Below, in pieces: positions 1 through 16,019 of a stretch of DNA of 64,000 nucleotides. The DNA is from Candidatus Bathyarchaeota archaeon (GTDB taxonomy: Archaea; Thermoproteota; Bathyarchaeia; Bathyarchaeales; Bathycorpusculaceae), in the NCBI GenBank assembly GCA_963770935.1, contig CAVYRJ010000008.1:192001-256000 (forward strand), read 5' to 3'. The notes under the pieces were generated by a model. The model was not told the DNA's origin, did no database searches, and worked only from the letters and a program-made list of their open reading frames with translations. Positions within the stretch are counted from its first letter, which is position 1. Each line of letters opens with the position of its first letter. The translations under genes were made by a program, and so were the position numbers.

Positions 1-1327
1 TGACCTGTGTACGGTATAAGTCCCATTCGTGGCGTTTCTCTTTAAGGAAGTTCTCGAATGTTACTGGACCGAGGGTTTCACGCATCAAGTCGCTGGTCTC
101 CAGTTCGTCGAGCGCTTCTTTGAGGTTCTCAGGCAAGGAGACTATGCCGCGTTCTTTGCGTTCTTCATAGGTCATGTGGTAAACATTGAGTTCAACTGGG
201 TCGCCTGGGTCAATCTTGTTTTTTATGCCATCTAAGCCGGTTGCCAGTAGCACTGCGAATTGTAAATATGGGTTGCCTGCACCGTCTGGGCATCGGATTT
301 CGCATCTTGCAGCGTTCTTTCTACCACCGAAGTTGGGTACACGGATGAGCGGGCTGCGGTTTTTGTGTGCCCATGCAAGGTAAACTGGAGCTTCGTACCC
401 GGGGACTAAACGTTTGTAGCTGTTTGGCCACGAGTTGAGGACGGCCGCCATTTTACGTCCGTGTGCGAGTTGTCCACCGATGTAGTTTCTGGCTAGATCG
501 GAGAGGTAGCCGTTTTTGGCGTCGTCTGCATAGAAGAGGTTTTGTGTGTTGTCTTTGTTCCAGAGGCTCATGTGACAGTGCATGCCGCTTCCGTTGATGC
601 CTTGGAAGGGTTTAGGCATGTAAGTTGTAACGTAGCCTGCGCGCGCTGCAACAACTTTGCCGCACATTCTCATGGTTATAGCGCGGTCAGCGGTAACTAA
701 TGCTTCCCCATATTTGAAGTCAATTTCGTTCTGTCCTAACGCGACTTCGTGGTGGCTAATTTCAATTTCTATGCCGAAAGCTTCAGCTGTATCTGCGATC
801 TCTCGGCGAAGATCGTCGGTAAGGTCACTGGGGTGGAAATCGAAATATCCAGCTAGGTCAATTGGTGTTGGTAAACCGCCGGTTTCGCTTTCTTTGACTA
901 TGAAGAACTCTAATTCAGGTGCACAGATGAAGGTGTAACCTGCTTTAGAGGCTTTTTCAACTGCTCGCTCTAAAATGTATCTTGGATCACCTTCGAAACG
1001 TTTGTTTTGCGGGGTGTAAACATCACAGATCAATCTGCAGGAGGATTTTTCTTTTGGCCTCCACGGTAAAATGGCGAACGTGGTTGGGTCAGGGTAAAGA
1101 ACCATGTCTGATTCTTCGATAGGTCTGTAGCCGGTGATTGATGAACCGTCGAAGGATTGGCCGTTTTCAAAGATGCTTTCGATGTTTTTGGAGCTTACGG
1201 CTAAGTTTTTGAGCATACCGTTTATGTCTGTGAATTGTAGTCTAACAAATTTGATGTCGTTTTCTTGGATTTGTTGGACTACTTTTGTAACTTGTTCTTT
1301 CCACGCGGGGTTTTTAAAATTTTTCAT
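1..1327 (-). CDS. glnA: Glutamine synthetase type I (3' end runs off the window)
   Basis: Not in the ORF track; translated by hand from ATG 1327: MKNFKNPAWKEQV...IKFVRLQFTDINGMLK...GQSFDGSSITGYRPIEESDM; also HHEVALGQNEI and GINGSGMHCH; the frame at the window edge (LKEKRHEWDLYRTQV) matches the start frame. Confidence 0.95.
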   Translation of the reverse strand, partial: MKNFKNPAWKEQVTKVVQQIQENDIKFVRLQFTDINGMLKNLAVSSKNIESIFENGQSFDGSSITGYRPIEESDMVLYPDPTTFAILPWRPKEKSSCRLICDVYTPQNKRFEGDPRYILERAVEKASKAGYTFICAPELEFFIVKESETGGLPTPIDLAGYFDFHPSDLTDDLRREIADTAEAFGIEIEISHHEVALGQNEIDFKYGEALVTADRAITMRMCGKVVAARAGYVTTYMPKPFQGINGSGMHCHMSLWNKDNTQNLFYADDAKNGYLSDLARNYIGGQLAHGRKMAAVLNSWPNSYKRLVPGYEAPVYLAWAHKNRSPLIRVPNFGGRKNAARCEIRCPDGAGNPYLQFAVLLATGLDGIKNKIDPGDPVELNVYHMTYEERKERGIVSLPENLKEALDELETSDLMRETLGPVTFENFLKEKRHEWDLYRTQV

Positions 1328-1546
1328 TTTCTAGTTTTCTCTCCTTGAAAGACTTGGCTTTTGCTCTCCATATGTTATGGAAATCAGATTAAACGTAAAC
1401 ATATTTAAGTTTATCGCTTCAAAGTTATCGATAAATGTCCAGTATCTTAACGAATTATTGAAATAGTGTTCCAAGCCTGTTTGCTTTCGGCGTGGAAAAA
1501 AATGCTCAAAACCCCTTCTCAACTAGTCAAATAATCAAAAAAACCT

Positions 1547-2023
1547 TCAATAGCGCTCTCTACGCAGAAAATCGCCCACATCAGAAACGTTTCTAACCGC
1601 AATTTGATTGTTCCCTTCGTCATCGTTCAGGTTTTCAACAATTCTGCCAAAACCTAAACATTCGCCAAACTCGTTAAGAACCAAAGCATTAGTATTTTTC
1701 TTACTTGCACCTTGAACACGCATAATGCTTTTCCCCAAAATATCTCTGCCACAAATAAAAAGCCAAGCCGCCTTCCTATCAACGACAACTCGGTTAGCAC
1801 CCATCTTGGCAAGCATAACGAGTAAATTAAAGCTTGGAAAAAACTTTCCTTCCTTAGCTTTCCCCAAATAAACTCCAACGTAAAAGAAATCCGGCCGAAC
1901 CAACAGCTTCAATACTGGATTCACAAGGTAATATCGTCCATTCTTCTCAACTATCAAATCCAAGTTCAAGGCAATTTGGACTCCTAATTGAACTGCAAAG
2001 TTTGTTATTGGTTTCGGGTTCAA
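1547..2023 (-). CDS. NIP7-like / PUA-domain RNA-binding protein (partner of the upstream m5C methyltransferase)
   Basis: VVVDRKAAWLFICGRDI, VLNEFGECLGFG, DVGDFLRRE are PUA/NIP7-like; TTG at 2023 overlaps the upstream TGA (ORF track extends to 2053). Confidence 0.7.
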   Translation of the reverse strand: MNPKPITNFAVQLGVQIALNLDLIVEKNGRYYLVNPVLKLLVRPDFFYVGVYLGKAKEGKFFPSFNLLVMLAKMGANRVVVDRKAAWLFICGRDILGKSIMRVQGASKKNTNALVLNEFGECLGFGRIVENLNDDEGNNQIAVRNVSDVGDFLRRERY

Positions 2024-2913
2024 GGCTTGGGACTCCGTTTTTTTAGTTTGCAAACGAAAAACCCTTGGGTTTCACCGGGCCATAGCCGTCTGCATCGCTT
2101 TATCGTTGGGTCTAGCTGTTTGCCGAATATGTTGGTTATTCCTTTTTCTCCATAGCAATAGGTTTCTTCAATTTGCAGGTTTAGATTTTTTATAGCCCAA
2201 TCGATGTTCAATTCGTCTTCTTCAGGTTCAAGCGAACATGTGGAATAAACAATTTCGCCCTCATCACTTACGCATTCAGCTGTTTTAGAGAGAATTTCCC
2301 GTTGAAGATCCGCATTGCGCTCCACATCTTTTAGGGTTCGGTTTTTAAACCAGTCCCGGTCTGATGCAAAGTTGCCCGAGCAAGGAGCATCCACTATTAT
2401 CCTATCAAACTTGACGTTTAAATTCGCCGCCTGCCTTGCATCCAACAAGTAAACTACTGTGTTGCTAACGTGGCAGCGTTCCAAATGGTTACTCAACGCA
2501 TTCAACCGCCTTTTATCCACATCCAAAGCTATGATGCCGCCAGTATTATCCATCAAATCTGCTAATTGCACAGTTTTGCCTCCAGGCGCCGCTGCTGCAT
2601 CGAGCACTTTTTTACCTTTTAAGTGAGTAAATAGTGAAACTGGGATTTGGGCGGCTGCTTCCTGTATTGAATATAAGCCTAGCAGGTATTCGGCGGTTGC
2701 ACCTGCGGAAACTTTCGAGTCAAGTACCCAATAACCTGAGTCGAGGAAAGGGATTTTTTGCAGGTGAACTCCTAAGTCTTCAAGTCTTGGGAGGAGTTTT
2801 TTTCCTTTTGCGTTAGTATTGTTGATACGGATGGTTTGTTTTAATGTTACCTCCCGGTATTCCCAACCCAGCCGTTTATAGCGGCTTGTAAAAAATTCTT
2901 TGCCCGACATCAA
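2020..2913 (-). CDS. RsmB/NOP2 family RNA m5C methyltransferase
   Basis: VLDAAAAPGGKT, IVDAPCSG and VYSTCSLEPEEDE motifs. Confidence 0.93.
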   Translation of the reverse strand: MMSGKEFFTSRYKRLGWEYREVTLKQTIRINNTNAKGKKLLPRLEDLGVHLQKIPFLDSGYWVLDSKVSAGATAEYLLGLYSIQEAAAQIPVSLFTHLKGKKVLDAAAAPGGKTVQLADLMDNTGGIIALDVDKRRLNALSNHLERCHVSNTVVYLLDARQAANLNVKFDRIIVDAPCSGNFASDRDWFKNRTLKDVERNADLQREILSKTAECVSDEGEIVYSTCSLEPEEDELNIDWAIKNLNLQIEETYCYGEKGITNIFGKQLDPTIKRCRRLWPGETQGFFVCKLKKRSPKP

Positions 2914-3110
2914 GCAAAAATACTAAGCCACTGATAAAAACTTTTCAAAATAAATTCTTCTGTTCAGAATGCTTTGATTTCTATCAAGAAGCTCCATTTG
3001 ACCAGATAAAGCACTGATGGCAAAATTTTTGCCTATTCCAGTGGATCAAATTTTTTTACCAGAGGATAAAGTTCATTTCCAATAGATTTTGGAAAAAGTT
3101 TGGTTTAGCG

Positions 3111-5993
3111 TTATTCGATGTAGATTGCAGGTTGATAGGGCAGTGCCATCGCTGCACGGTTCTTGGGGTCAATGCGGTTATTATCGTCCTCGCTGAAAAC
3201 AGATACTTCTGCGTTGAAACGTTGCCTAAAAAAACCTGCTGTAGAAGCCAAAATCGACAGTTCGTCCATTGCTTTGATTTTTTGCATGTTGACTTTGCGT
3301 TCGCCAGAAACCTTTGTTAAAGATTTAATAATTCTTGGAACCATGCCTGCAATATTTTTCATATACGGCTTTAGATCTTTGTCCGCAGCGAAATCCTTCA
3401 TTAGCTCACTGATTTTTGTTTCGCCGGCAATTGTTTTTTCAAGGATTTTTAGGTAAACTTTCCATTTCGATGGTGCCGCAGTGTAGTAGCAGATGCGTTT
3501 TGGCGTTATCTTCGTAGCTTTTATGATGTTTGTTGTGTCGTTGATTATATCGGTGATTAGAGTTTCTTGTTCCTCAGCGGCAATATCAATCTTGCTTATG
3601 TCAAAGACTGGCCATTTTGCAACGCTTATGAATCCTTCTTCTCCAGTTTGGCTCCAAAGCTCCTCACAGAGAAAAGGCGCGAAAGGCGAAAGCATCTTTA
3701 ACCATACTTTCACCGCATCACTCAGAGCTTTGGCCTCTGTGTTGCCTTTCCGTTGAATATACCAGCGCAGATCATTCCAAGTCTCAAACAACGCAACCTG
3801 CAATGCAGTTCGGGTTTTAAGTTCATCTAAGTTTGCTGTGACTTCTTTTATTCGACATTGAAGCTTACTAGTAAGCCACCGTTCCAAGGCTGTGTTTTCT
3901 TGGTTTTTGGCAGAGGCAATTATGCCGCTTGCAAATCCAACTAAAGCTTCAAACTTGGTTTGGAGGTCACTTACGTTTTCAGCGCGCCAATCAGGATCAT
4001 CCATGCCCTCAGCACCCAACAACAAACCACATCTTGTTGCGTCGGCGCCATATTTTTCGACAGCTCCCTTCACGGTTATGAAATTGCCTTTGCTTTTGTG
4101 CATTCCTTGTCCTTCGATCATAAGCATGCCGTTAACGCCGATGGCTTTAGGCCAATGTTCTGGTGGAAAGAGCGCGGCATGATGGAAGATACAGAATGAG
4201 AGATGATTTGGTACGAGTTCTTTAGCGGAATTCCTCAAATCAAATGGGTACCAGTACAGGAATTCAGATCGCATTGCATTGAGCAAGGTAGCACTTAATC
4301 CAGTAGTGATTCCAAGTTCAGTTGCATCGCCTTTACCATAGAAAAGAAAATCGAAAACTTCAGGTGTCAACGCTTCAGCGTTAACGTTATTCTGTTTTAT
4401 GTGTTTGTTTACGGTATAGAATGCCATATAGACCGTTGAGTCACTTAATGTTTCGATTATCCAGCCTTTCCCCCAGGGCAGCGGGGTTCCAAAACCAGTT
4501 GTTCTTGCACAAGCCCACTCGCGAAGCCAATCTATAACTGTGTAGAAATTTTGCTTTGCTGAATTGGGATAAATTGTCATTTGAGCGACGACTTGTTTGG
4601 CTTTCTCCTTCCATTGTGGCTCTGAATAGTTTAGGAACCATTGATCAGAGAGGATTTTTACTAAACACTGCGTCATGCACCGGCAAACGACAGGTTCAGC
4701 TAAATCGTACATGGAATCTGCAGCGCCAAGTTTGCGGAAATCAGTTATCAATATGTCTTTGGCTTCGCGGACAGTTTTTCCTGCATATGGTCCGCAGTTT
4801 GCCTTCAGGATGCCACTATGGAATTCTTTTTTGTACAGTTCTTTTGTGGCTTGTTCACCTTTGGGGTCGTTTTGGTCTTTTATGCCCATTTTCTCGACTA
4901 TTTCAACTGCTGGAAACTCACCAAAGCCCTCGACTTTAATGATCGAAATTGGCTTAATTTGCAGTACTGCAGCTGGATCCATGTCGAACTGTGCAAGGAC
5001 TTCTGGTTTTTGCTGCAGATCGCGCAGTGCTAGCCAATCGTATGGTGCGTGGGCTGGAACGCTGTAAACAACGCCTGTGGCGGTTTTGGGGTCAACAAAC
5101 CAGCCGGGTAAAATTGGAAACTTTAGTTTTGTGATAGGATTCTCAAACCATTTGCCAATGAGTTCTTTGCCTTGGAAGTTGCGCTTTACTTCAACTTTTC
5201 TTTCCTGCTCTTTTAGCTTCTCTGATGCTTCTTGGCTAATTATCCAGTTTTCGCCATTAACGGTTGCTTCCACATAGGTAACGTCAGGGTTAATCCATAT
5301 GTTAGTTACACCATAGATTGTTTCAGGGCGGAAAGTTGCCGCGGGCAGAAACGTTTTTTCATCTAGCTTATACTTTATCAATGTATATTCTTCTGCGGTG
5401 ACGCCTTCGCCGCTTTGACGGTCATGGTCACCTGTGGGGCTCTTATCTTTGGGACACCAAACTACTGGGTGCGTACCACGTGTAACATAACCTTTTTCTT
5501 TAAGGTTCTTGTATTGCCACTCGATGAATTTTTGGTAAGTGGGCATCACTGTTGTGAATTCACGTCGCCAATCCACTGAGAAACCGATGCTTTTAGCGGC
5601 TAAGCGACCTTCGTTAGTGTAGTATTGAGCCATATAGATCGGGTCAACGAATTTCTTGAGTTCTTCTTCAGGCACCCCATCGACCTCTCTTAGGACTTTA
5701 ATATATGCTTCATCACCCCGAGCCACACGTTGGCTTGCTCCAAGCAGCGGTTGACCAGTCCAGTGCCAACCCCAAGGCCAAAGCACATTATAACCCTGCA
5801 TACGCTTAAACCGAGCATAAGCATCCACACGAGAAGCGGAGAAAGCATGCCCAACATGAAGTGGACCATTCATGTACGGATATGGAAAAGTCACCATCTT
5901 TTTCTGCCTGTTCGGATCAGGGTCAGCCTCGAAAACATGGGCGTTTTCCCATTTGGCTTGCCATTTCTGCTCGAATTGCTTGGTTTGGCTCAT
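3111..5993 (-). CDS. leuS: Leucine--tRNA ligase, archaeal type
   Basis: TFPYPYMNGPLHVGH (HIGH), GMHKSKGN (KMSKS-like), ATFRPET editing domain, 960 aa. Confidence 0.97.
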   Translation of the reverse strand: MSQTKQFEQKWQAKWENAHVFEADPDPNRQKKMVTFPYPYMNGPLHVGHAFSASRVDAYARFKRMQGYNVLWPWGWHWTGQPLLGASQRVARGDEAYIKVLREVDGVPEEELKKFVDPIYMAQYYTNEGRLAAKSIGFSVDWRREFTTVMPTYQKFIEWQYKNLKEKGYVTRGTHPVVWCPKDKSPTGDHDRQSGEGVTAEEYTLIKYKLDEKTFLPAATFRPETIYGVTNIWINPDVTYVEATVNGENWIISQEASEKLKEQERKVEVKRNFQGKELIGKWFENPITKLKFPILPGWFVDPKTATGVVYSVPAHAPYDWLALRDLQQKPEVLAQFDMDPAAVLQIKPISIIKVEGFGEFPAVEIVEKMGIKDQNDPKGEQATKELYKKEFHSGILKANCGPYAGKTVREAKDILITDFRKLGAADSMYDLAEPVVCRCMTQCLVKILSDQWFLNYSEPQWKEKAKQVVAQMTIYPNSAKQNFYTVIDWLREWACARTTGFGTPLPWGKGWIIETLSDSTVYMAFYTVNKHIKQNNVNAEALTPEVFDFLFYGKGDATELGITTGLSATLLNAMRSEFLYWYPFDLRNSAKELVPNHLSFCIFHHAALFPPEHWPKAIGVNGMLMIEGQGMHKSKGNFITVKGAVEKYGADATRCGLLLGAEGMDDPDWRAENVSDLQTKFEALVGFASGIIASAKNQENTALERWLTSKLQCRIKEVTANLDELKTRTALQVALFETWNDLRWYIQRKGNTEAKALSDAVKVWLKMLSPFAPFLCEELWSQTGEEGFISVAKWPVFDISKIDIAAEEQETLITDIINDTTNIIKATKITPKRICYYTAAPSKWKVYLKILEKTIAGETKISELMKDFAADKDLKPYMKNIAGMVPRIIKSLTKVSGERKVNMQKIKAMDELSILASTAGFFRQRFNAEVSVFSEDDNNRIDPKNRAAMALPYQPAIYIE

Positions 5994-6100
5994 GAAACCT
6001 TCTGATTAAAGCTTTAGCTATTAAGAGTTTTTCTTGCGTGCATGGTCAAGTGACCTAAAAATACAAATACAAAGACAAACAAAAGGTGCATCGATCACAC

Positions 6101-7099
6101 ATGTCCACCGACGAGGAGTTAATGCAGGAAGTTCAGACCTTTCTAGTTGAGCGCTCAAAAAAGGCCATTTTCTTGGCGAGGGAAGCTATCTTTAAAGAAC
6201 AAATTAAGTACACGCCCCTCCTTGAAGCCCTCACTTATTTTATGCAGGAAGTATGGACAAATGCAGCTCCTCACCCAACTCTTTTGTCCTTAACCTGTGA
6301 AGCAGTCGGGGGAAACCCTGATGCAATAATTGAAATAAGTGCAGCAATGGTGCTGTTGACTGGTGCAGCAGATATCCACGATGACATTATCGACCAATCA
6401 ATAACAAAAGATTCTAAACCTACAGTTTACGGCAAATACGGCAAAGACATTGCAGTCATAGCAGGAGATGTATTGTGGTTCAAAGGCATAATGATGTTAA
6501 ACGAGGCGTGTGAATCGTTCCAAAAAAATAAAAGATATGAAATTCTTGAGATAGCAAAGCAATCCTTCTTTGATATTGGTAGTGCAGAAGCCAACGAAGC
6601 AAATCAAAGAAGAAACCTTGATCTGCAACCTCAGAAATCTCTAGAAATTATTAGAATGAAGGCTTCAGTTGCGGGGGCAGCGGCCAAGATTGGTGCTATT
6701 GTTGGAGGTGGAACCGAGGAAGAAGTTAAAAGCCTAGGCGACTTTGGAGATAACTTGGGATTTCTGATGACTATCCGTGACGAATTTGTAGATGTTTTTG
6801 AGGCAGATGAGTTGAAGAACAGGTTTACTAATGAGTGTTTGCCGCTTCCTATTTTGTACGCTTTCCAAAACATAGTCTTAAAAAGACAAATTTTGGATAT
6901 ACTTAAACAGGCAGACATTAAAGAATCTGATTCAGAAAAAATTGCGGAACTAGTCATTAACTCCCCTCAATTACATAAGCTTACAGGTATCATGAAATCA
7001 TCAATGAAAATAGCTACCGAGAGTTTAACAAATATGAAAAAGAACAAAAATATATTTAATCAATTATTGAAGTCTGCGCTACAAGATTTGCCTTCTTAA
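6101..7099 (+). CDS. Isoprenyl diphosphate synthase-fold (polyprenyl synthetase family) protein A with degenerate motifs; candidate ComQ-like peptide Trp-prenyltransferase
   Basis: First Asp-rich motif IHDDIID and AVIAGD intact; no GKRxR, no RR after DDxxD (QSITKDSKPT), GQxxD replaced by AEANE, second motif RDEFVD. ATG at 6101 preferred over GTG 6086. Confidence 0.85.
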   Translation: MSTDEELMQEVQTFLVERSKKAIFLAREAIFKEQIKYTPLLEALTYFMQEVWTNAAPHPTLLSLTCEAVGGNPDAIIEISAAMVLLTGAADIHDDIIDQSITKDSKPTVYGKYGKDIAVIAGDVLWFKGIMMLNEACESFQKNKRYEILEIAKQSFFDIGSAEANEANQRRNLDLQPQKSLEIIRMKASVAGAAAKIGAIVGGGTEEEVKSLGDFGDNLGFLMTIRDEFVDVFEADELKNRFTNECLPLPILYAFQNIVLKRQILDILKQADIKESDSEKIAELVINSPQLHKLTGIMKSSMKIATESLTNMKKNKNIFNQLLKSALQDLPS

Positions 7100-7100
7100 A

Positions 7101-7119
7101 ATAAATAAAGAAAAAAAAG
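7101..7119 (-). terminator. Oligo(T) archaeal terminator for the minus-strand micro-peptide gene
   Basis: Minus strand reads TTTTTTTTCTTTATTTAT a few nt after the peptide stop at 7128. Confidence 0.5.
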
Positions 7120-7127
7120 TTAAGAAT

Positions 7128-7169
7128 TTACCACCAGTACATTCTTACAGGTCTAATTGGTTTTTTCGT
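7128..7169 (-). CDS. Micro-peptide A, (M)KKPIRPVRMYWW, 13 aa; candidate precursor with ACG at the start position
   Basis: Minus strand: CAGGAGG AAAGGAAT ACG AAA AAA CCA ATT AGA CCT GTA AGA ATG TAC TGG TGG TAA. Strong SD 8 nt before ACG, upstream TATA-like box, downstream T-run; resembles peptide B. Confidence 0.55.
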   Translation of the reverse strand, partial: TKKPIRPVRMYWW

Positions 7170-7176
7170 ATTCCTT

Positions 7177-7222
7177 TCCTCCTGTATTGTTGTTGAACGT
7201 ATAAACTTTAAAAGGTTTGCGG
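7177..7222 (-). promoter_or_regulatory. BRE/TATA-like promoter and SD of micro-peptide A
   Basis: Minus strand CCGCAAACCTTTTAAAG (TATA ~7206-7213), then about 25 nt to ACAGGAGG. Confidence 0.5.
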
Positions 7223-7340
7223 TAACTAGCCTCTATGTCAAGACATTTATCAATATTAGCAATCTTGTTTATTACTACTCAAAGCTTATCTTAACCGAAA
7301 TCTCAAATACTTTCTAACTGAACTCGCACGATAGAATTTA

Positions 7341-8666
7341 GTGTTAATCATGGGTAAAACTGGAAAACTCACAATGGATTTGCGCCTAACTCTAGGAAGT
7401 GCCTTTTTAATCGTAAATGCGCTCGTTTGGTATAGTGTTGCAACTAATATTTTGCCATCTATAATAATGAAAGACTCACAAAGTCTATTGTTATGGAGTT
7501 TTCATTTTGTTGCACTAATTATTTCAATTTTTATCGGTATCCTGTTGACTAAAAAAATTGGCACCCGATTCTTGCTTTTGATATGGACGAGTATTGGAAT
7601 TTTTTCTCCTCTAACTTTGTTTGCTATCGATAGTGAAGGTATTCCGCCCTTAGCTATGGTACTTTTCGGTGTATCTCTTGGGTTGGGTATACCGAGTTGC
7701 ATGGCTTACTTTTCTAGATCTACTCAGGCTAACAATCGGGGAAAATTCGCCGGTTTGATAATGCTATTAATTGGCATATTTAGTGTTTTACTGATTGTAT
7801 TAAGTGCAAATAAAATAGAGCCAACAGCCATTATTTTGATGATCTGGCGAACATTTGGGCTGCTATTTTTTCTTGTCCCAAATATAAAGCAACCTATAAT
7901 ACCTGATAAGCACTCAGTATCATTTTCTTTTGTTCTGAAACAAAGGTCCTTCATCTTATACTTGATTCCATGGCTGATGTTTTCTTTAGTTGGTTATCTA
8001 AGTGTGCCTGTGCAGGAAAGCGTTTTAGCGCAACAAGAAATTAATATTCTCAGGCTTGCCGAAAGTATTATTGGAAGTGTTTTTTCCGTAATTACTGGAT
8101 TGCTGATAGGTGTTGTGGGCAGGAAACGTATTGCAATTATTGCATTTGTTTTGGTTGGGATCGAGTTTGCGATTTTAGGAATGTATCCAGACCAAATGGC
8201 AGGATGGATGATCTATACAGTACTTAACGGGGCAGCATGGGGAACGTTCTATGTTCTGTTTGTAATGTCAATTTGGGGAGATTTGAGCCAAAATACTTCG
8301 ATAGAAAAGTACTATGCCCTTGGAATCATTCCGTTCTTTATATCCAAGTATTTGTCGCTAGTGCTAGGAGAAAATGTAGCTGCTGCAGTTTCTGTAAACA
8401 CTTTATTTTCATTCACTGCGTTTTTCCTTTTTCTAGCTGTTTTGCCCTTGGTTTATGCGCCTGAGACTTTGCCTGAAAAAGTCATGAAGGATAGGGATCT
8501 TAAAAGTTACATCGAGAACGCAAAAAAGAAAGCCCAAAAAGATGCTGATAAAGCAGCTAATAACAAAGAGAAAAAATTGAAAAAAGTGTCCGAGGAGAAA
8601 ACTCAAGATGCCAAACCTGATAAGGCCTATGAAGAAGCAAAAAGACTTGCAGAAAAATACTACTAA
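7341..8666 (+). CDS. MFS-type transporter A with charged C-terminal tail
   Basis: About 12 hydrophobic segments, GRKR loop motif, APETLPEK after the last helix, tail YEEAKRLAEKYY. Confidence 0.85.
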   Translation: MLIMGKTGKLTMDLRLTLGSAFLIVNALVWYSVATNILPSIIMKDSQSLLLWSFHFVALIISIFIGILLTKKIGTRFLLLIWTSIGIFSPLTLFAIDSEGIPPLAMVLFGVSLGLGIPSCMAYFSRSTQANNRGKFAGLIMLLIGIFSVLLIVLSANKIEPTAIILMIWRTFGLLFFLVPNIKQPIIPDKHSVSFSFVLKQRSFILYLIPWLMFSLVGYLSVPVQESVLAQQEINILRLAESIIGSVFSVITGLLIGVVGRKRIAIIAFVLVGIEFAILGMYPDQMAGWMIYTVLNGAAWGTFYVLFVMSIWGDLSQNTSIEKYYALGIIPFFISKYLSLVLGENVAAAVSVNTLFSFTAFFLFLAVLPLVYAPETLPEKVMKDRDLKSYIENAKKKAQKDADKAANNKEKKLKKVSEEKTQDAKPDKAYEEAKRLAEKYY

Positions 8667-8870
8667 AACGTGGATGATGATTTCACGGAGATTTGTTGGG
8701 GCAAAATAGAATTGAACATGTACCTGCGGCTGTTTGGATTTAATCAATAATCTTTCTTCTTAATGATGAATCCCCAGCTAAAGCTAAATAATCAAGTATT
8801 TTTGTTGTATTGCTGTTCTACTGTTGTTTTGTTGGATAACTATCTCAAAACCGAATGTTTTGGTGTGTAC

Positions 8871-8917
8871 TTATATATTACGAGTCACGACTTGTTTCAT
8901 AAGGGTAAGAGGTGAAA
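8871..8917 (+). promoter_or_regulatory. TATA box and SD of micro-peptide B
   Basis: TTATATAT at 8871-8878; GAGGTGA at 8909-8915, 5 nt before ATG 8921. Confidence 0.6.
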
Positions 8918-8920
8918 TAC

Positions 8921-8974
8921 ATGAAACAAAAACAAGCAATCCGAGCTAAACCCATAAATTGGGGTGGATGGTAA
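8921..8974 (+). CDS. Micro-peptide B, MKQKQAIRAKPINWGGW, 17 aa; candidate ComX-like precursor
   Basis: Canonical archaeal SD GAGGTGA, ATG, own TATA box; lies directly upstream of prenyltransferase B; Trp at -4 and -1. Confidence 0.75.
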   Translation: MKQKQAIRAKPINWGGW

Positions 8975-9078
8975 AAAAATCCAGTGCTGAAAAGAAACTT
9001 TCTCACACCAAATTTTGATTTTGAATCTTAATTTTAAAATCTTAACTTACAAATAGTGAAGGTTCTGATTTTACCTGT

Positions 9079-10086
9079 ATGCCAACTAGCTCCCTTACCC
9101 AGAATGCGTTATGCATAATTCAAGGTAAGGGTCATTCTGCGATATCTCAAGCTTGCCAAAAAATATTCCAAAAACAATATGATAGAGGAATAATGCGTGA
9201 AGCATTACACTATTATGCGAAAATGGTTCTTCCAAATGTTCTGCCGATTTTTCCAGCTCTAGGTTACTTATCTAGCAAAGCCGTGGGCATGGTCCCCGAA
9301 AACTACAACTCGGTAGCAAGGGCTATGGTGCTTATAACATCCTCAGGAGATATCCACGATGACATCGTTGACAATTCAAGGAAAAAGTTTGGACGAAAAA
9401 CGGTTTTTGGCAAATTCGGGAAAGATATTGCTATTTTGGCAGGCGATGTATTGCTTATTCAGGGAACAGCAGACCTTCAAAGCGAATGCTACAACCTGTC
9501 AAGCAGGCACAGAAAGGCCATAGTGGATTTGGTTGCTGCCTCGATGTTCGAAATCGTGACAGCTGAAGCACTAGAGATTTCCTTGTGTGATAAAGTTAAT
9601 GCGTCTCCAGAGGAGTATTTTGAGGTCATCAGAATGAAAGGTAGTGTTGGAGAGCTTCATTGCAAAATCGGTGCAATAATCGGTGGCGGAAGTCAAGAAG
9701 CGATCGATGACTTAGGACATTATGGCAGGGTAATCGGGATCTTGTCGACTCTGAAAGAGGAATTTGTTGATATGACAATGTTGGAAGAGTTTAAGCACCG
9801 AATCAAGTACGAATTACCGCCATATCCCATGCTTTGTGCCATGAAGAATAAAGCTCTGAAAAAAAAAATTGTTGGCATCACCGAGGGGCCCAAGTTTTTA
9901 GAGAATGATTTGCAGGCAATTGAGGAAATGGTACTAGGTTCGATAGAAGTAAAAAGGCTCATAGCCGAATTTAGGGACTTAGGCAGAAAAGAATTGACTA
10001 CAAACTTGTTGTTAAAAGAAAATAAAAGAGCAAGTGAGTTGTCGTTTATACTTGAGGCTTTGACAGTTGAATTGTCGCTTGTTTAG
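9079..10086 (+). CDS. Isoprenyl diphosphate synthase-fold protein B (paralogue of A) with degenerate motifs; candidate ComQ-like prenyltransferase
   Basis: IHDDIVD and AILAGD intact; NSRKKFGRKT instead of RRG, AEALE instead of GQxxD, second motif LKEEFVD, no GKRxR. Confidence 0.85.
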   Translation: MPTSSLTQNALCIIQGKGHSAISQACQKIFQKQYDRGIMREALHYYAKMVLPNVLPIFPALGYLSSKAVGMVPENYNSVARAMVLITSSGDIHDDIVDNSRKKFGRKTVFGKFGKDIAILAGDVLLIQGTADLQSECYNLSSRHRKAIVDLVAASMFEIVTAEALEISLCDKVNASPEEYFEVIRMKGSVGELHCKIGAIIGGGSQEAIDDLGHYGRVIGILSTLKEEFVDMTMLEEFKHRIKYELPPYPMLCAMKNKALKKKIVGITEGPKFLENDLQAIEEMVLGSIEVKRLIAEFRDLGRKELTTNLLLKENKRASELSFILEALTVELSLV

Positions 10087-10188
10087 CTATTTATCTTGAA
10101 TATGGATTCAATCACTGATGTATTATTTCTTAATGTTTAATAATACTTACACTTATCGTTATCCTGTGCACCCAAAACGCTAAGAATA

Positions 10189-11536
10189 ATCGGTAAAAAA
10201 ATATCGTCAATCTCAAAAGAAACGTTAGTAAGCACTTTTTTAGTAGCGAACGCTTTTGTTTGGTATCTTTGCGGATTCGGGTATTTGCAAGACATAACAA
10301 GTACGAATTTTAGCGGTAATTCACTACTATTAATGGTTAGCGGCAATTTCGTCAGCTTGGTTTTATCTGCCTTTGCTTCTTCCCTTTTAACAAGCAAATT
10401 CAAGCATAGATTAAATTTTCTCAAATATTGGAGTATTGCAGGTGCATCACTTTCAATCATTTTCGCTATCATAAACCTGCAAGAGCTTACAAATATAATA
10501 GCAATTGCAATCATAATTGGTTCGTACTTCGGTATAGGAATGCCCGTTTGCATGGGCTACTACGCAAATTCAACTAAGCCTCAAAACCGAGCAAAACTAA
10601 GTGGAATCATAATACTTTTTATAGGAATAGGTTATCCAGCTATCTCTATAATTGGAAACAATGCACCGCTCTTTTTAGCCGCCACTTTGGCGGTATGGCG
10701 AATCTCGAGTTTATTTCTTATTCGATATATTAAGCCCGCTGAGCAACAAGAAGAGTCAAAACAGAGGGTTACTTACCGGTCAATAATTACAAACAAGAGT
10801 TTTGTTCTCTATGCTCTCCCATGGCTAATGTTTTCTCTCATAAACGACCTGACAATGCAGTTGAATACTAGCTGACTTTAGTAGCAGTACATTTCCCCAG
10901 GCTTTTGGAAATAACTTTCTGCTTATAGAAATGGTCTTAGCTGGGGCTTCAGCAATTATTTGTGGGCTTTTAGCTGATAGGAAAGGTCGAAAACGATTGG
11001 CATTGATCGGCTTTGTACTTTTAGGCGTTGGGTATGCTTCTTTAGGGATTTTTACCGGCAACTACCTTGCAGCCTGGTTTTATGTATGTGTTGACGGTAT
11101 CGCGTGGGGTGCTTTTTCAATGTTGTTTTTAGTAACTCTCTGGGGGGATATTGCTCAGGGAAAAAGCGCTGAGAAATATTATGTTCTTGGAGTCCTTCCA
11201 TATTTGTTTTCAAACCTAGCTCGCGTTTTAGCTGGAACTTACATATCAGCTAATATGATAGAGGGAACGGCTTTCTCGTTTGCCAGCTTCTTTCTATTCA
11301 TTGCAATACTGCCTATAGCATTTGCTCCAGAGACCTTGTCTGAAAAAATAATAAAGAAACTAGACCTCAATAGCTATGTCAACCAAGCATTGGAGAAAGC
11401 AAAGAAAAAGAATGCAAAAAATGTGGAGCCAGGTCAAAGAGTTGTATCACAGAATGAAATGACAAGCAATGATGAAGCCGATGATACGTCAAAAGAGTAC
11501 GAAGAAGCAAAGAAGTTGGCGGAAAAATACTATTAA
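10189..11536 (+). CDS. MFS-type transporter B (paralogue of A); +1 frameshift at ~10873; no canonical start codon
   Basis: ORFs 10285-10875 and 10931-11536 join; frame is open upstream to IIGKKISSISKETLVSTFLVANAFVWY, matching IMGK...SAFLIVNALVWY of A; tail YEEAKKLAEKYY. Confidence 0.8.
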
Positions 11537-11561
11537 GTCGGACGTTTGTTGATATGGTTTC

Positions 11562-12693
11562 ATGTTCTTTCACGTGATACTTACCAGTGACTGCAATTTG
11601 CAGTGCAAGTACTGTTTTGGCGAGAGCCTTGATGACTTTGACGAAGAATTCGGCGACGATATAGAAGTCGACTACGATTTGCCACGCAACCTCAGCTATG
11701 ATTTAGAGCCTCTGAACAAGTTCTGCCGACAAGACCCTAATTGTGTTTTGACCTTCTATGGTGGAGAACCCCTGCTGCAGATGGATAAACTTAGGCAAAT
11801 TATGAATAAAGTGACCCCTAAACATTATATGATGCAAACAAACGGTTTACTTCTTGACAAACTTGAACCAAAATATGTTAACCGTTTCCACACTATCCTT
11901 GTCTCGATTGATGGGCAAGAAGACCTGACGGATGCTTATCGAGGAGCAGGAACTTACCGGAAAGTCATCGAGAACCTAAAATTAATCAAGAAAAACGGAT
12001 TTAAGGGAGAATTAATTGCTCGCATGACCATAATGGAGCAAACCGACATAGAAAAACAAGTCAAATATCTCTTGAACAACCCGGATTTTTCGTTTACCTC
12101 GATTCATTGGCAACTTAACGCTGGTTTCTGGGGCAATGACTATCAAAGGCGCAACTTTGAGGAGTGGACCAAAACCAGCTACATTCCAGGGGTTGAAAGG
12201 CTGGTGCATTTTTGGGTTGACCAAATCCAAGATAAGGGCACTGTGCTTAAACTATACCCAATTTTGGGCATAGCAAACTCGCTTTTGCATGAAGAGAAAA
12301 AATGCCTGATGCGTTGCGGAGGCGGCTGGATAAACTACGCTATCCAAACTGACGGCTACATTATTCCTTGCCCAACCATGTGGGGGATGAAGGAATACTA
12401 TCTTGGGCATATAAAAGATGCCGACCCTCTAAAACTTGAGACGAATTTTCGTAGACGAGAAACCTTGTGTGGACTGCAAAAATCTGGATATTTGCGGGGG
12501 AAGATGCCTATACACTAATATAACCAAAAGATGGAGCGATGATGCTTACAATAAAGTTTGCAACACGGTGGAACAATTAATCAAAGCAGTAGAATGCGAA
12601 GTCCCACGCATCCGAAGGTTGATCAGTAAGGGAAAAGTTGGGATAGATGACTTTGATTATGTAAAATATAATGGTGCTGAAATCATACCTTAG
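11562..12693 (+). CDS. Radical SAM/SPASM protein, resembling the AF0577 (TIGR04084) putative peptide-modifying family; frameshift at ~12435
   Basis: CNLQCKYC, FYGGEP, CGGG...DGYIIPCP, and in the second frame CVDCKNLDICGGRC...C; ends YNGAEIIP. Confidence 0.88.
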
Positions 12694-12854
12694 AGTTGTT
12701 TGTATACAACATTTTTTTTCTCTTTCCCATTGAATTGTTTATTCGATGTTTTGTCTGATTTCTGCCCGATGGATTTCTTTAGTGTCAATCTGAATGGAAT
12801 TGACGGGCTGGTCAAAATTTATTATGAGTCCTTTGGAATTGGTATTCGAATTCT

Positions 12855-13448
12855 TTATTTTGAAAGCAGGAAAAGTCCGACTTCACCGAAAAGGTTGGGC
12901 AAAACCGAAACCTCCTTGTCCTTAGAGATGAAAACCGCTTTTTCGATACATATCCCACTTTTTTTGCAATATTCTTTGAAGTCAGCGATGCTTAGAAAGT
13001 GTAAGTTAGGAGTATCATACCACTCATAAGGCAGAGATGGGGTAACTGGGACTTTTCCGCGGAAGAAAATCTGGAAGCGATCAGTGATATAGCAAAAATT
13101 TGGGAAACCAACGATTACTTTTTTGCCGACACGCAAGGCCTCTTTTATCGCAAAATCAGGTTTCTTGACTTGTTGTAATGTTTGGTTTAGGATAACGTAG
13201 TCTACGCTTTTGTCAGCGTATTCGGTTAATCCAGTGTCGATGTCTTGCTGGAACACGCTTAAGCCTGCTGCTACGCAGTTGTGGATGGCTTGTTCGCTGA
13301 GTTCCACGCCTTGTGCATGCACTTGCTTGTTGCGGATCAGCAAATTGAGAAGTTCGCCGTCGCCGCATCCCAAATCCAAAACGGATGCTCCGCTGCTAAT
13401 CCAGCTTGAAATGACTTTGTGCTCAATTACATGGGTTTGCTTTGTCAT
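12855..13448 (-). CDS. metW: Methionine biosynthesis protein MetW
   Basis: [29 protein letters not shown]; overlaps metX stop. Confidence 0.93.
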
Positions 13449-14585
13449 GTACGACCGCCATTTTTGTTTCCATTGGATACAGCTGTCAAAAAGCCCCCGA
13501 TAAGTTGCGTTTCCTGCTCTGTTTCCAACAGGAAAGAGTCATGGCCATAAGTGCTGTTTATTTCGCAGTAGCTTGCCTCTACGCCTGCTAGTTTGCATGC
13601 TTTAACGATTTCTTGGCTTTGGTAGGCTGGGTAGAGCCAGTCAGACTTGAAAGCCAGAACGAGAACTTTTGCCTTTAATCCTTTAAAGACATTGCCTAAA
13701 GCATGGCCGTTGAGAACGTTAAAGTTGTCGATGGCTTTAGTGATGTAGAGATAACTGTTGGCATCGAACCGTTTGACAAAGTTGTCTCCTCTGTAGCGAA
13801 GGTACCCTTCGACTTCGAAGTCTGCGCTGAACTTGAAAGGTTCCTTATCAGCTCTGGTTTTTCTGCCAAACTTTTCAGTCATTGAAGTGTCGCTCATATA
13901 AGTAATGTGTCCAATCATTCGGGCAACGGCTAAACCTTTTGAGGGAGGTTTTGAACCGTAATATTCGCCATTTTTCCAGTCAGGATCTGACATCACAGCT
14001 TGTCGCCCAACCTCGTTGAATGCTATTTGCTGAGGGGTATGTTTCAGCGCCGTTGCAATTGGAATTGCTGAACATATCCATTCGGGATATGAAACCATCC
14101 ATTGCAGCACTTGCATTCCACCCATGGAACCGCCGATAACCGCCAATAACTTCTTGATACCCAAGTGATCAATGAGTTGTTTTTGTGCTTCAACCATGTC
14201 GCCGACGCTAACAAGTGGGAAACTTAGACCGTAAGGCTTTCCTGTTTTATGATCAATTGAAGATGGACCTGTCGAGCCCTTGCAGCCTCCGATAACGTTG
14301 CTGCATATTACAAAGTACTTGTCTGTGTCAATGCCTTTGCCTTGACCTATTAGGTTTCCCCACCAGCCATCGGGTCCAGCAGCATGGGCGTCTCCGCTGA
14401 GTGCATGAAGAACAAGAATTGCGTTTGATTTTTGCGCATTCAATTTGCCGTATGTTTCGTAGGCAAGCGTAATTGGACCTAATTTTTCACCCGATTCCAA
14501 CGTTAACTCATCAGGGGGTTGGGCGAAAGTATAAGTTTTGTGTTTGGCTGGTTTTTTCGTTGGTTATTAGCTTGTTTGCCTCCAT
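13445..14585 (-). CDS. metX: Homoserine O-acetyltransferase; frameshift near the 5' end (A-run ~14555)
   Basis: [20 protein letters not shown]; upstream [19 protein letters not shown] connects to ATG 14585 only through a frameshift. Confidence 0.93.
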
Positions 14586-14605
14586 AAAGAAAAAAGTTGT
14601 TTGTT

Positions 14606-15925
<1,320 letters not shown>

Positions 15926-15945
15926 TTAGCGGAACAATAAAATGC

Positions 15946-15975
15946 ATAACGGCGTTATATGGGTTCTTGCAAGAA
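15946..15975. promoter_or_regulatory. Two palindromes in the divergent metY / HTH-CBS promoter
   Basis: ATAACG-G-CGTTAT (15946-15958) and TTCTTGCAAGAA (15964-15975). Confidence 0.4.
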
Positions 15976-16019
15976 ATATTCCAAAAAGAATATTAGCCCA
16001 TCAGACCAACTACTAAAAC

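Follow-up and report, generated by a model that had tools for sequence, protein, structure and literature searches.

The micro-gene described here lies on the minus strand of a 64,000-nucleotide (nt) stretch of a 1.98-Mb Bathyarchaeia genome (contig CAVYRJ010000008.1). We refer to this whole stretch as the window, and all coordinates are counted from its first position. The micro-gene occupies positions 7128 to 7169 and converges on the 3′ end of a plus-strand gene (6086 to 7099) for a protein that we call enzyme A. Judged by its conservation in related loci, this micro-open reading frame (micro-ORF) is a real conserved gene, and in eight distinct sequences, that of the window included, the codon at its start position is ACG. 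The explanation that fits best overall, and to which we give somewhat better than even credence, is that translation would start at this ACG, that the product would be a leaderless precursor peptide, that enzyme A would prenylate a tryptophan (Trp) of this peptide, and that a transporter of the major facilitator superfamily (MFS) would export it.

The micro-gene and its conservation

A preliminary description of the site had listed a TATA-like sequence, a Shine-Dalgarno (SD) sequence, an 8-nt spacer, ACG, 12 codons, TAA, and an oligo-T run, and each of these is present on the minus strand. A transcription factor B recognition element (BRE)-like sequence, ACCGCAAACC (7223 to 7214), precedes the TATA box, TTTTAAAG (7213 to 7206); position and conservation suggest a promoter role for both. 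The SD motif AGGAGG (7183 to 7178), which lies within the conserved block AATACAGGAGGAAAGGA, is separated by the spacer AAAGGAAT (7177 to 7170) from the putative start codon ACG (7169 to 7167, the C being position 7168). This ACG aligns with the ATG of three related loci (L001, L002, and L007; related loci are given L numbers throughout). The 12 codons that follow (7166 to 7131) encode K K P I R P V R M Y W W (KKPIRPVRMYWW) and end at TAA (7130 to 7128). We call (ACG)KKPIRPVRMYWW peptide A, a putative leaderless precursor. A T8 run (7118 to 7111) that starts 9 nt past the stop probably serves as an archaeal-type oligo-T terminator, and T-rich tracts 3′ of the stop are also found in the clade relatives of the window.

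A lone 13-codon frame means nothing by itself, and it is conservation that lifts this one above chance. A species-level genome collection contained 170 relatives of enzyme A and a metagenome scan yielded at least 393 more; the best 80 of each set were examined. The labels of the best 80 genome relatives are nearly all Bathyarchaeia or Bathyarchaeota, and most of these loci contain a tiny opposite-strand frame directly 3′ of the enzyme gene, whose beginning is rich in K/R and whose end is rich in Trp, usually with P-[IVL]-R as well. Of 79 usable genome loci, 53 have a basic, Trp-ended convergent micro-ORF in the 165-nt zone that follows the enzyme gene. Micro-ORFs matching a strict motif, which was defined only after the data were seen, had a density of 3.78 per kb in this zone versus 0.049 per kb elsewhere in the same loci, both strands considered, and several of the 26 loci missed by this motif hold obvious variants that fall outside it. 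Among the metagenome loci, 76 had a downstream zone that could be used, and 59 of these gave a candidate. The comparison of orthologous loci suggested in the preliminary description thus turned up the conserved frame in both sets. Together, the genomes and metagenomes provide 119 loci with 112 distinct nucleotide sequences of 12 to 23 codons (median, 16).

The window and L001 to L008 form one clade (support, 100), and in the clade alignment the BRE/TATA block, SD, A-[C/T]-G, and frame all line up. The BRE/TATA block ACCGCAAACCTTTTAAAG is almost invariant across the 10 aligned clade sequences, the block AAATACAGGAGGAAAGGA is aligned alongside it, and the distance from the SD to the start position is the same in ATG relatives (L001 and L007) as in the ACG-bearing ones. 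Pairwise differences average 0.26, 0.12, and 0.51 at codon positions 1, 2, and 3, respectively, compared to 0.45 to 0.49 in the noncoding flanks (eight clade rows, after the near-duplicates L006 and L096 were dropped). This pattern indicates selection on the peptide and not on a DNA or RNA element, and the idea that the conserved block is a mere terminator or promoter element was rejected on these grounds.

ACG at the start position

Start codons were assigned in the 112 distinct sequences by a crude rule that takes the first in-frame canonical codon with at least two K/R in the next six residues, then ACG, and then other near-cognate codons. The rule returned ATG in 68 sequences, TTG in 26, GTG in 10, and ACG in 8, with no other class. 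The canonical split is approximate, as some TTG and GTG calls lie upstream of a better-placed ATG (L012, L024, L025, L045, L079, L100, and L106), and L050 is probably no member of the micro-peptide family. Weak starts are common in the family by this rule, TTG accounting for about one fifth and GTG for a few per cent. ACG is carried by the window, L003, L004, L005, L006, L008, L096, and L135. Whereas 104 of the 112 family members have ATG, GTG, or TTG at this position by the crude rule, the window has ACG, 8 nt from AGGAGG, and lacks the ATG, GTG, or TTG at 5 to 10 nt from the SD that is expected of an SD-led archaeal gene.

Upstream of the ACG in the window, the first in-frame stop is TAG (7235 to 7233). 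No ATG, GTG, or TTG occurs in the micro-ORF frame between this TAG and the ACG, and the sole downstream in-frame ATG would yield only the four residues MYWW. L004, L005, and L008 have an in-frame TAA six codons 5′ of the ACG, so in these loci only ACG can open the frame, and a canonical in-frame start is absent wherever the eight sequences carry ACG. An ATA located 5′ of the SD was tried as a start and rejected; the window, L004, L005, and L008 have it in frame, and L003 and L006 do not. Within the clade, the codon preceding the ACG varies (AAT, ATT, AGA, GAG, or AGT), and the A and G of ACG/ATG are invariant.

The ACG sequences fall in five deep lineages, with enzyme end branches of 0.34 to 0.45 changes per site and identities of 51 to 58%. 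L096, from a metagenome, has the same peptide as L008. L135, which has no other in-frame start, lies outside the window's clade as the sister (support, 100) of L126, which has GTG at this position. At L124, ACG stands in place of the ATG of the related loci L105 and L118; a GTG lies three codons upstream, and this locus was left as ambiguous. At least four changes between ACG and a canonical start are needed on a 53-row enzyme tree, which was built by a quick method and omits L008, whose stretch held stops.

The preliminary description had offered three accounts of the ACG: a base-call error, a silencing mutation, or a real non-AUG start. For an assembly or base-call error at 7168 that hides a true ATG, one can point to the origin of the window in a metagenome-assembled genome (MAG) and to apparent frameshifts nearby. 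The same ACG in seven other distinct sequences, from separate public assemblies and metagenomes, excludes this account with near certainty.

A silencing mutation would mean that the peptide gene is real in the relatives and that the ACG alleles are translationally silent non-producers by recent descent. The ATG relatives in the same clade and the frameshifts in other cassette genes of the window are compatible with this, as is the fact that ACG is no accepted archaeal start. The deep ACG lineages, however, keep the frame, stop, SD, promoter, peptide, and coding substitution pattern, which points to purifying selection in these lineages. The neutral flanks have diverged by about 0.45 to 0.5, and a dead 39-nt frame would not stay open over such distances. 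In addition, none of the 112 sequences has a noncanonical start-position codon other than ACG, and the constancy of its A and G again disfavors a silent allele, which we consider improbable.

Plant organelles create AUG from ACG by mRNA editing, and the alternation of only T and C at the middle position, between an invariant A and G, has the look of an editable site. C-to-U editing of the mRNA would restore a normal AUG start. We know of no such mRNA editing in archaea, and near-cognate initiation explains the pattern without extra machinery, so we regard editing as very improbable.

The account that remains best is the third, a real non-AUG start; the codon, its context, and its conservation are observed, and initiation itself we infer from the sequence. 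Several results weigh against it. Archaeal start codons are given as AUG, GUG, and UUG, and aIF1 discriminates against AUU, in the available portion of PMC4705826. No archaeal ACG start was found in the searchable literature, whose coverage excludes most subscription journals. A genome-wide scan of codons 3 to 12 nt after GGAGG with at least 100 open codons showed no excess of ACG (0 to 6 per spacing), in a test of low power in which even ATG was only weakly enriched (18 at the best spacing). Metatranscriptome run X1 (6% of sampled words) yielded a single 200-nt contig at 6830 to 7029 and zero coverage over the micro-gene. This contig matches the 3′ portion of the enzyme A gene without a difference, may stem from RNA or from DNA carry-over, and gives no information on expression, strand, or editing at 7168.

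Near-cognate ACG starts occur in eukaryotes and their viruses, where the initiator tRNA reads ACG despite the mismatch at the middle position and translation is at a low level. The site in the window would be similar in this respect and differs in being SD led, unlike the ACG codons that are reached by scanning in eukaryotes. ARAGORN identified 27 tRNAs in the host genome, including an ordinary initiator-type tRNA-Met(CAT), an elongator tRNA-Met, and one tRNA-Thr(CGT). This set, for which intron-bearing tRNAs were not searched for, gave no sign of a special initiator tRNA that reads ACG, and the genome pattern search for SD-N8-ACG-AAR-AAR returned this site only. Archaeal aIF1 and aIF2 are homologous to the eukaryotic factors, again according to the available portion of PMC4705826. 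The simplest reading of the sequence is initiation at ACG by near-cognate pairing with the ordinary initiator tRNA, which would produce MKKPIRPVRMYWW at a low rate. ACG would then be the weak end of a family series of starts that runs ATG, TTG, GTG, ACG.

Enzyme A and its putative peptide substrate

Enzyme A matches PF00348 (polyprenyl synthetase) and is a putative peptide Trp prenyltransferase with a trans-isoprenyl diphosphate synthase (trans-IDS) fold. Its AlphaFold2 model is all-alpha, with a predicted local distance difference test score (pLDDT) of 92.2 and a predicted template modeling (TM) score (pTM) of 0.89. The top Foldseek matches of the model are all of the trans-IDS fold (TM score, 0.64 to 0.80). 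The geranylgeranyl diphosphate (GGPP) synthase 1WY0 is first among them and also in an HMMER profile search, and the indole prenyltransferase Ord1 ranks between 3 and 6 across the Foldseek (rank 5), HMMER, and PDB sequence comparisons. Fold and profile comparison cannot tell a synthase from a prenyltransferase here.

Enzyme A has DIHDDIID as its first aspartate-rich motif (FARM); D96, H98, D99, D100, and D103 are invariant in 39 sequences, and the motif is family-wide. The canonical synthase of the host, encoded on contig C14, contains GGKRWRP, DDIED, RRG, KTG, FQMQDDILD, and GKR. Compared to it, enzyme A and its paralog enzyme B (9079 to 10086, plus strand; PF00348; 37% identity to enzyme A) retain the FARM as well as the Lys of KT and lack GGKRxRP, FQ, and GK, and a second motif RDEFVD or KEEFVD replaces FQ..DDxxD. 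The 80-member family agrees with this motif loss and has the consensus M-T-L-R-D-E, or MT(I/L)RDEF(V/I)D, in the second region. Against NCBIfam synthase models, whose cut-offs range from 275 to 600 bits, enzyme A reached at best 104.5 bits with a cut-off of 468. Enzyme A thus has neither the full motif set nor the above-cut-off score of a chain-elongating synthase.

In the trans-IDS mechanism, the missing basic residues form the site for isopentenyl diphosphate (IPP). Loss of the IPP-site motifs with retention of the FARM implies that enzyme A should bind and ionize a prenyl diphosphate and should not elongate it. The second motif, which may be repurposed in enzyme A, is repurposed in ComQ, PalQ, ChrPC, and StheQ, as far as the accessible parts of PMC13290415 and the StheQ preprint go. 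By its sequence, enzyme A resembles these Trp prenyltransferases in working logic. We liken it to ComQ, PalQ, and StheQ and do not file it as a member of their class, because the hallmark Gln upstream of the second motif is absent.

Of the 112 distinct peptides, 94 have Trp at position −2 from the C terminus, 24 have it at −1, and 77 have a single residue after their last Trp; P-[IVLFTMA]-R occurs in 99, and the net charge has a median of +5. The characterized trans-IDS-like peptide prenyltransferases all act on Trp, and PalQ acts on a C-terminal Trp with a preference for GW or GGW, according to the accessible parts of PMC13290415. StheQ prenylates the penultimate Trp of StheX, as stated in the available part of its source. 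The penultimate Trp, the best-conserved residue of the peptide family (codon 7134 to 7136 on the minus strand), is by analogy with StheX the likely modification site. As there is no leader, recognition may rest with the conserved KP[IV]RP[IV]R stretch.

Pairing of peptides with enzymes points in the same direction. The gene for peptide B, MKQKQAIRAKPINWGGW (8921 to 8974, plus strand), lies upstream of the enzyme B gene on the same strand. The likeness between the two peptides that had been noted earlier is borne out; they have in common a basic start, IR, KP, and a Trp end, which in peptide B is GGW. A-type enzymes pair with peptides of the form ..KP[IV]RP[IV]R..W[W/x]. Orthologs of enzyme B (45 to 63% identity), which came from the genome search (a related-locus search with enzyme B gave no true relatives), are accompanied in 5 of 5 loci (L165 to L169) by an upstream same-strand peptide ..IRAKP..GGW (M.xK..I[RK]AK....GGW). 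Peptide subtype and gene position therefore track enzyme subtype, as expected of cognate pairs. L171, L173, and L177, more distant from enzyme B, have one upstream same-strand and one convergent downstream peptide gene, an arrangement of two micro-peptide genes per enzyme also found in L169; L033 has two convergent copies. The earlier proposal that peptide A is the cognate substrate of enzyme A gains from the tight and wide linkage of the two genes and from this subtype tracking, and the prenylation step itself is predicted from them.

A different possibility is that the micro-peptide is translated and is not a substrate of enzyme A, acting instead as a small regulatory or accessory product, such as a cis-encoded peptide or antisense RNA that controls the enzyme and MFS genes, or as a transporter partner, with enzyme A making an isoprenoid or prenylating something else. 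The genes are arranged in a way that would suit such a role. The first plus-strand T-run past the enzyme A stop is a T6 at 7161 to 7166, the complement of the two Lys codons of the micro-ORF, which implies that the enzyme A transcript is probably antisense over the whole micro-ORF and makes an extra layer of control possible. In L042, L045, L047, L048, L051, L061, L066, and L080, the enzyme and micro-peptide frames overlap by 20 to 32 nt on opposite strands. The nearness of enzyme A to GGPP synthases and its lack of the Gln of known Trp prenyltransferases also fit. Yet the motif I basic residues, FQ, and GK have been lost though the host synthase keeps them, which argues against chain elongation, and the best-conserved feature of the peptides is a Trp at −2 or −1, the acceptor of every characterized enzyme of the class in the accessible literature. 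An antisense-only role also predicts no covariation of peptide subtype and gene position with enzyme subtype. We rate this possibility as fairly unlikely.

Prenylation of peptide A by enzyme A has further observations to contend with. Neither sequence nor fold places enzyme A nearer to Ord1 than to true GGPP synthases. Because three acidic positions persist in its second motif (D-E-x-x-D), enzyme A may still have a second metal site. PMC13290415 describes a Gln just upstream of this motif as conserved in Ord1 and in the PalQ and ChrPC clusters; members of the enzyme family have Thr or Met there, Thr229 of enzyme A being the residue that aligns with the Gln of Ord1. No histidine kinase or response regulator of the kind found in ComQXPA was seen among the ORFs scanned in positions 1 to 16000, the remaining small ORFs being unscanned. 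Finally, frameshifts in the MFS B and radical S-adenosylmethionine (SAM) genes of the window may mean that part of the cassette is decaying or may be MAG indel errors.

Taking peptide A as the substrate, we envisage the following course. A region of about 170 nt, common to both, would drive the micro-gene in one direction and the MFS A gene in the other. The micro-gene would be an independent transcription unit, whose mRNA would have a short leader with the strong SD and would end at the T8 run. The product, a basic peptide of 13 residues ending in Tyr-Trp-Trp, would be the leaderless precursor for enzyme A. Enzyme A would bind and ionize an allylic prenyl diphosphate at the FARM and move the prenyl group to the indole of the penultimate Trp. 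Where it is intact, in many relatives, the radical SAM/SPASM enzyme would probably make a second modification, and the divergent MFS protein would export a cationic lipopeptide that might act as a signal or a membrane-active agent.

Cassette, known counterparts, and significance

The usual order of the cassette is enzyme (plus), micro-gene (minus), MFS (plus), and radical SAM/SPASM (plus). In the window, MFS A (7341 to 8666, plus strand), the putative exporter, is divergent from the micro-gene and has an MFS_1 match below the Pfam cut-off. Its longest frame opens at GTG 7341, and an ATG follows at 7350 (MGKTGK...). The cassette is flanked by a minus-strand gene for a 960-amino-acid (aa) archaeal-type leucyl-tRNA synthetase. 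Among loci with room for the gene in question, 67 of 76 have an MFS homolog on the same strand no more than 600 nt away, 36 of 63 have a TIGR04084-type radical SAM gene after it, and 16 of 68 have a divergent leucyl-tRNA synthetase gene.

Unlike most relatives, which have one set, the window contains a second peptide-enzyme-MFS set (B), located between MFS A and the radical SAM gene; second enzyme copies are also found in L003, L026, L032, and L067. MFS B (10285 to 11536, plus strand) is divided into two frames (10285 to 10875 and 10931 to 11536). The radical SAM/SPASM gene (11562 to 12693, plus strand; TIGR04084, 239 bits with a cut-off of 225), the last of the usual cassette, is split into 11562 to 12518 and 12436 to 12693 by a frameshift near 12430. 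In intact relatives, the MFS protein is a single ORF of 420 to 486 aa (420 to 422 aa in L166 and L167) and the radical SAM protein has 377 to 384 aa (L001, L005, L007, and L008); L004 shows MFS and radical SAM splits similar to those of the window.

Members of the enzyme family occur unevenly: 38 of 151 searched genomes of the class had one, including 21 of 27 in the window's own family and 7 of 7 in family f7, and none was found in the 9 genomes of f11 or the 23 of f30. This indicates a lineage-specific accessory system and not a housekeeping gene. No paper on the cassette or on the function of TIGR04084 was found in the searchable literature, which leaves out supplements and most subscription journals.

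The best reading by analogy is that the system is an archaeal, leaderless counterpart of the ComX, StheX, and PalX Trp-peptide systems. Like ComQ-ComX of Bacillus and StheQ-StheX of Sphaerobacter, it combines a trans-IDS fold, a retained FARM, and an apparently degenerate second motif with an adjacent small peptide that has a conserved Trp near its C terminus, the position modified in StheX being −2 in the part of the source available. It differs from them in its archaeal host and in a peptide gene that is convergent with the enzyme gene and not downstream of it. The precursors have 12 to 23 residues and no leader, whereas the StheX peptide used corresponds, in the same partial source, to residues 60 to 69 of a longer protein. 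An MFS protein and often a radical SAM/SPASM enzyme are present and no sensor kinase was seen, unlike in the ComQ and StheQ systems. The pseudo-second aspartate-rich motif (pseudo-SARM) is D-E-x-x-D in contrast to N-D-x-x-D in ComQ and StheQ, its first residue being Asp and not Asn.

PalQ of the PalQ-PalX system of Paenibacillus alvei is likewise a trans-IDS-like enzyme, one that acts on a terminal Trp with a preference for GW or GGW ends, and peptide B and its orthologs end in GGW. PalX differs in having a long nitrile hydratase leader peptide (NHLP) leader and a histidine kinase alongside, and the Gln of the PalQ cluster is not found in the enzyme A family. A residue after the Trp, as most A-type peptides have (77 of the 112), is reported to abolish PalQ activity in the accessible part of the source. 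Ord1 (PDB 9V4G and 9V4J) belongs to the top sequence hits of enzyme A in the PDB (E value of 7e−17; profile E value of 8e−27) and shares IRD(D/E) at the second motif; it acts on free tryptophan or indole, and its catalytic Gln is Thr in enzyme A. GGPP and other short-chain synthases (1WY0; IdsA and GGPP_syn in NCBIfam) are the best match by fold and sequence and have the same FARM. Enzyme A differs from canonical GGPP synthases in lacking GGKRxRP, FQ, and GK and in being paired with a Trp micro-peptide and an MFS gene.

Extended to the family, these results lead us to suggest, with a little less than even confidence, that the Bathyarchaeia contain an undescribed class of leaderless ribosomal peptides of 12 to 23 residues that would be lipidated at the penultimate Trp by a new archaeal branch of trans-IDS-like prenyltransferases, often modified by a radical SAM enzyme, and exported by an MFS protein, and that ACG would be a genuine start in this class, repeatedly fixed and throttling output. 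The conserved micro-gene is overlooked by gene callers in well over a hundred public genomes and metagenomes. It provides a concrete, testable candidate for a natural archaeal ACG start beyond the accepted AUG, GUG, and UUG, with built-in controls in the sister lineages that have ATG or GTG at the same position. If confirmed, it would be the first natural ACG start in archaea and an evolutionary dial on peptide output. Peptide Trp prenylation, previously known from a few bacterial systems (ComQ, PalQ, ChrPC, and StheQ), would then reach an abundant uncultured archaeal class. The precursors are short enough for synthesis, and the enzymes may serve as tools for peptide lipidation. Bathyarchaeia may secrete cationic lipopeptides as signals or membrane-active agents, which would bear on the ecology of peat and sediment.

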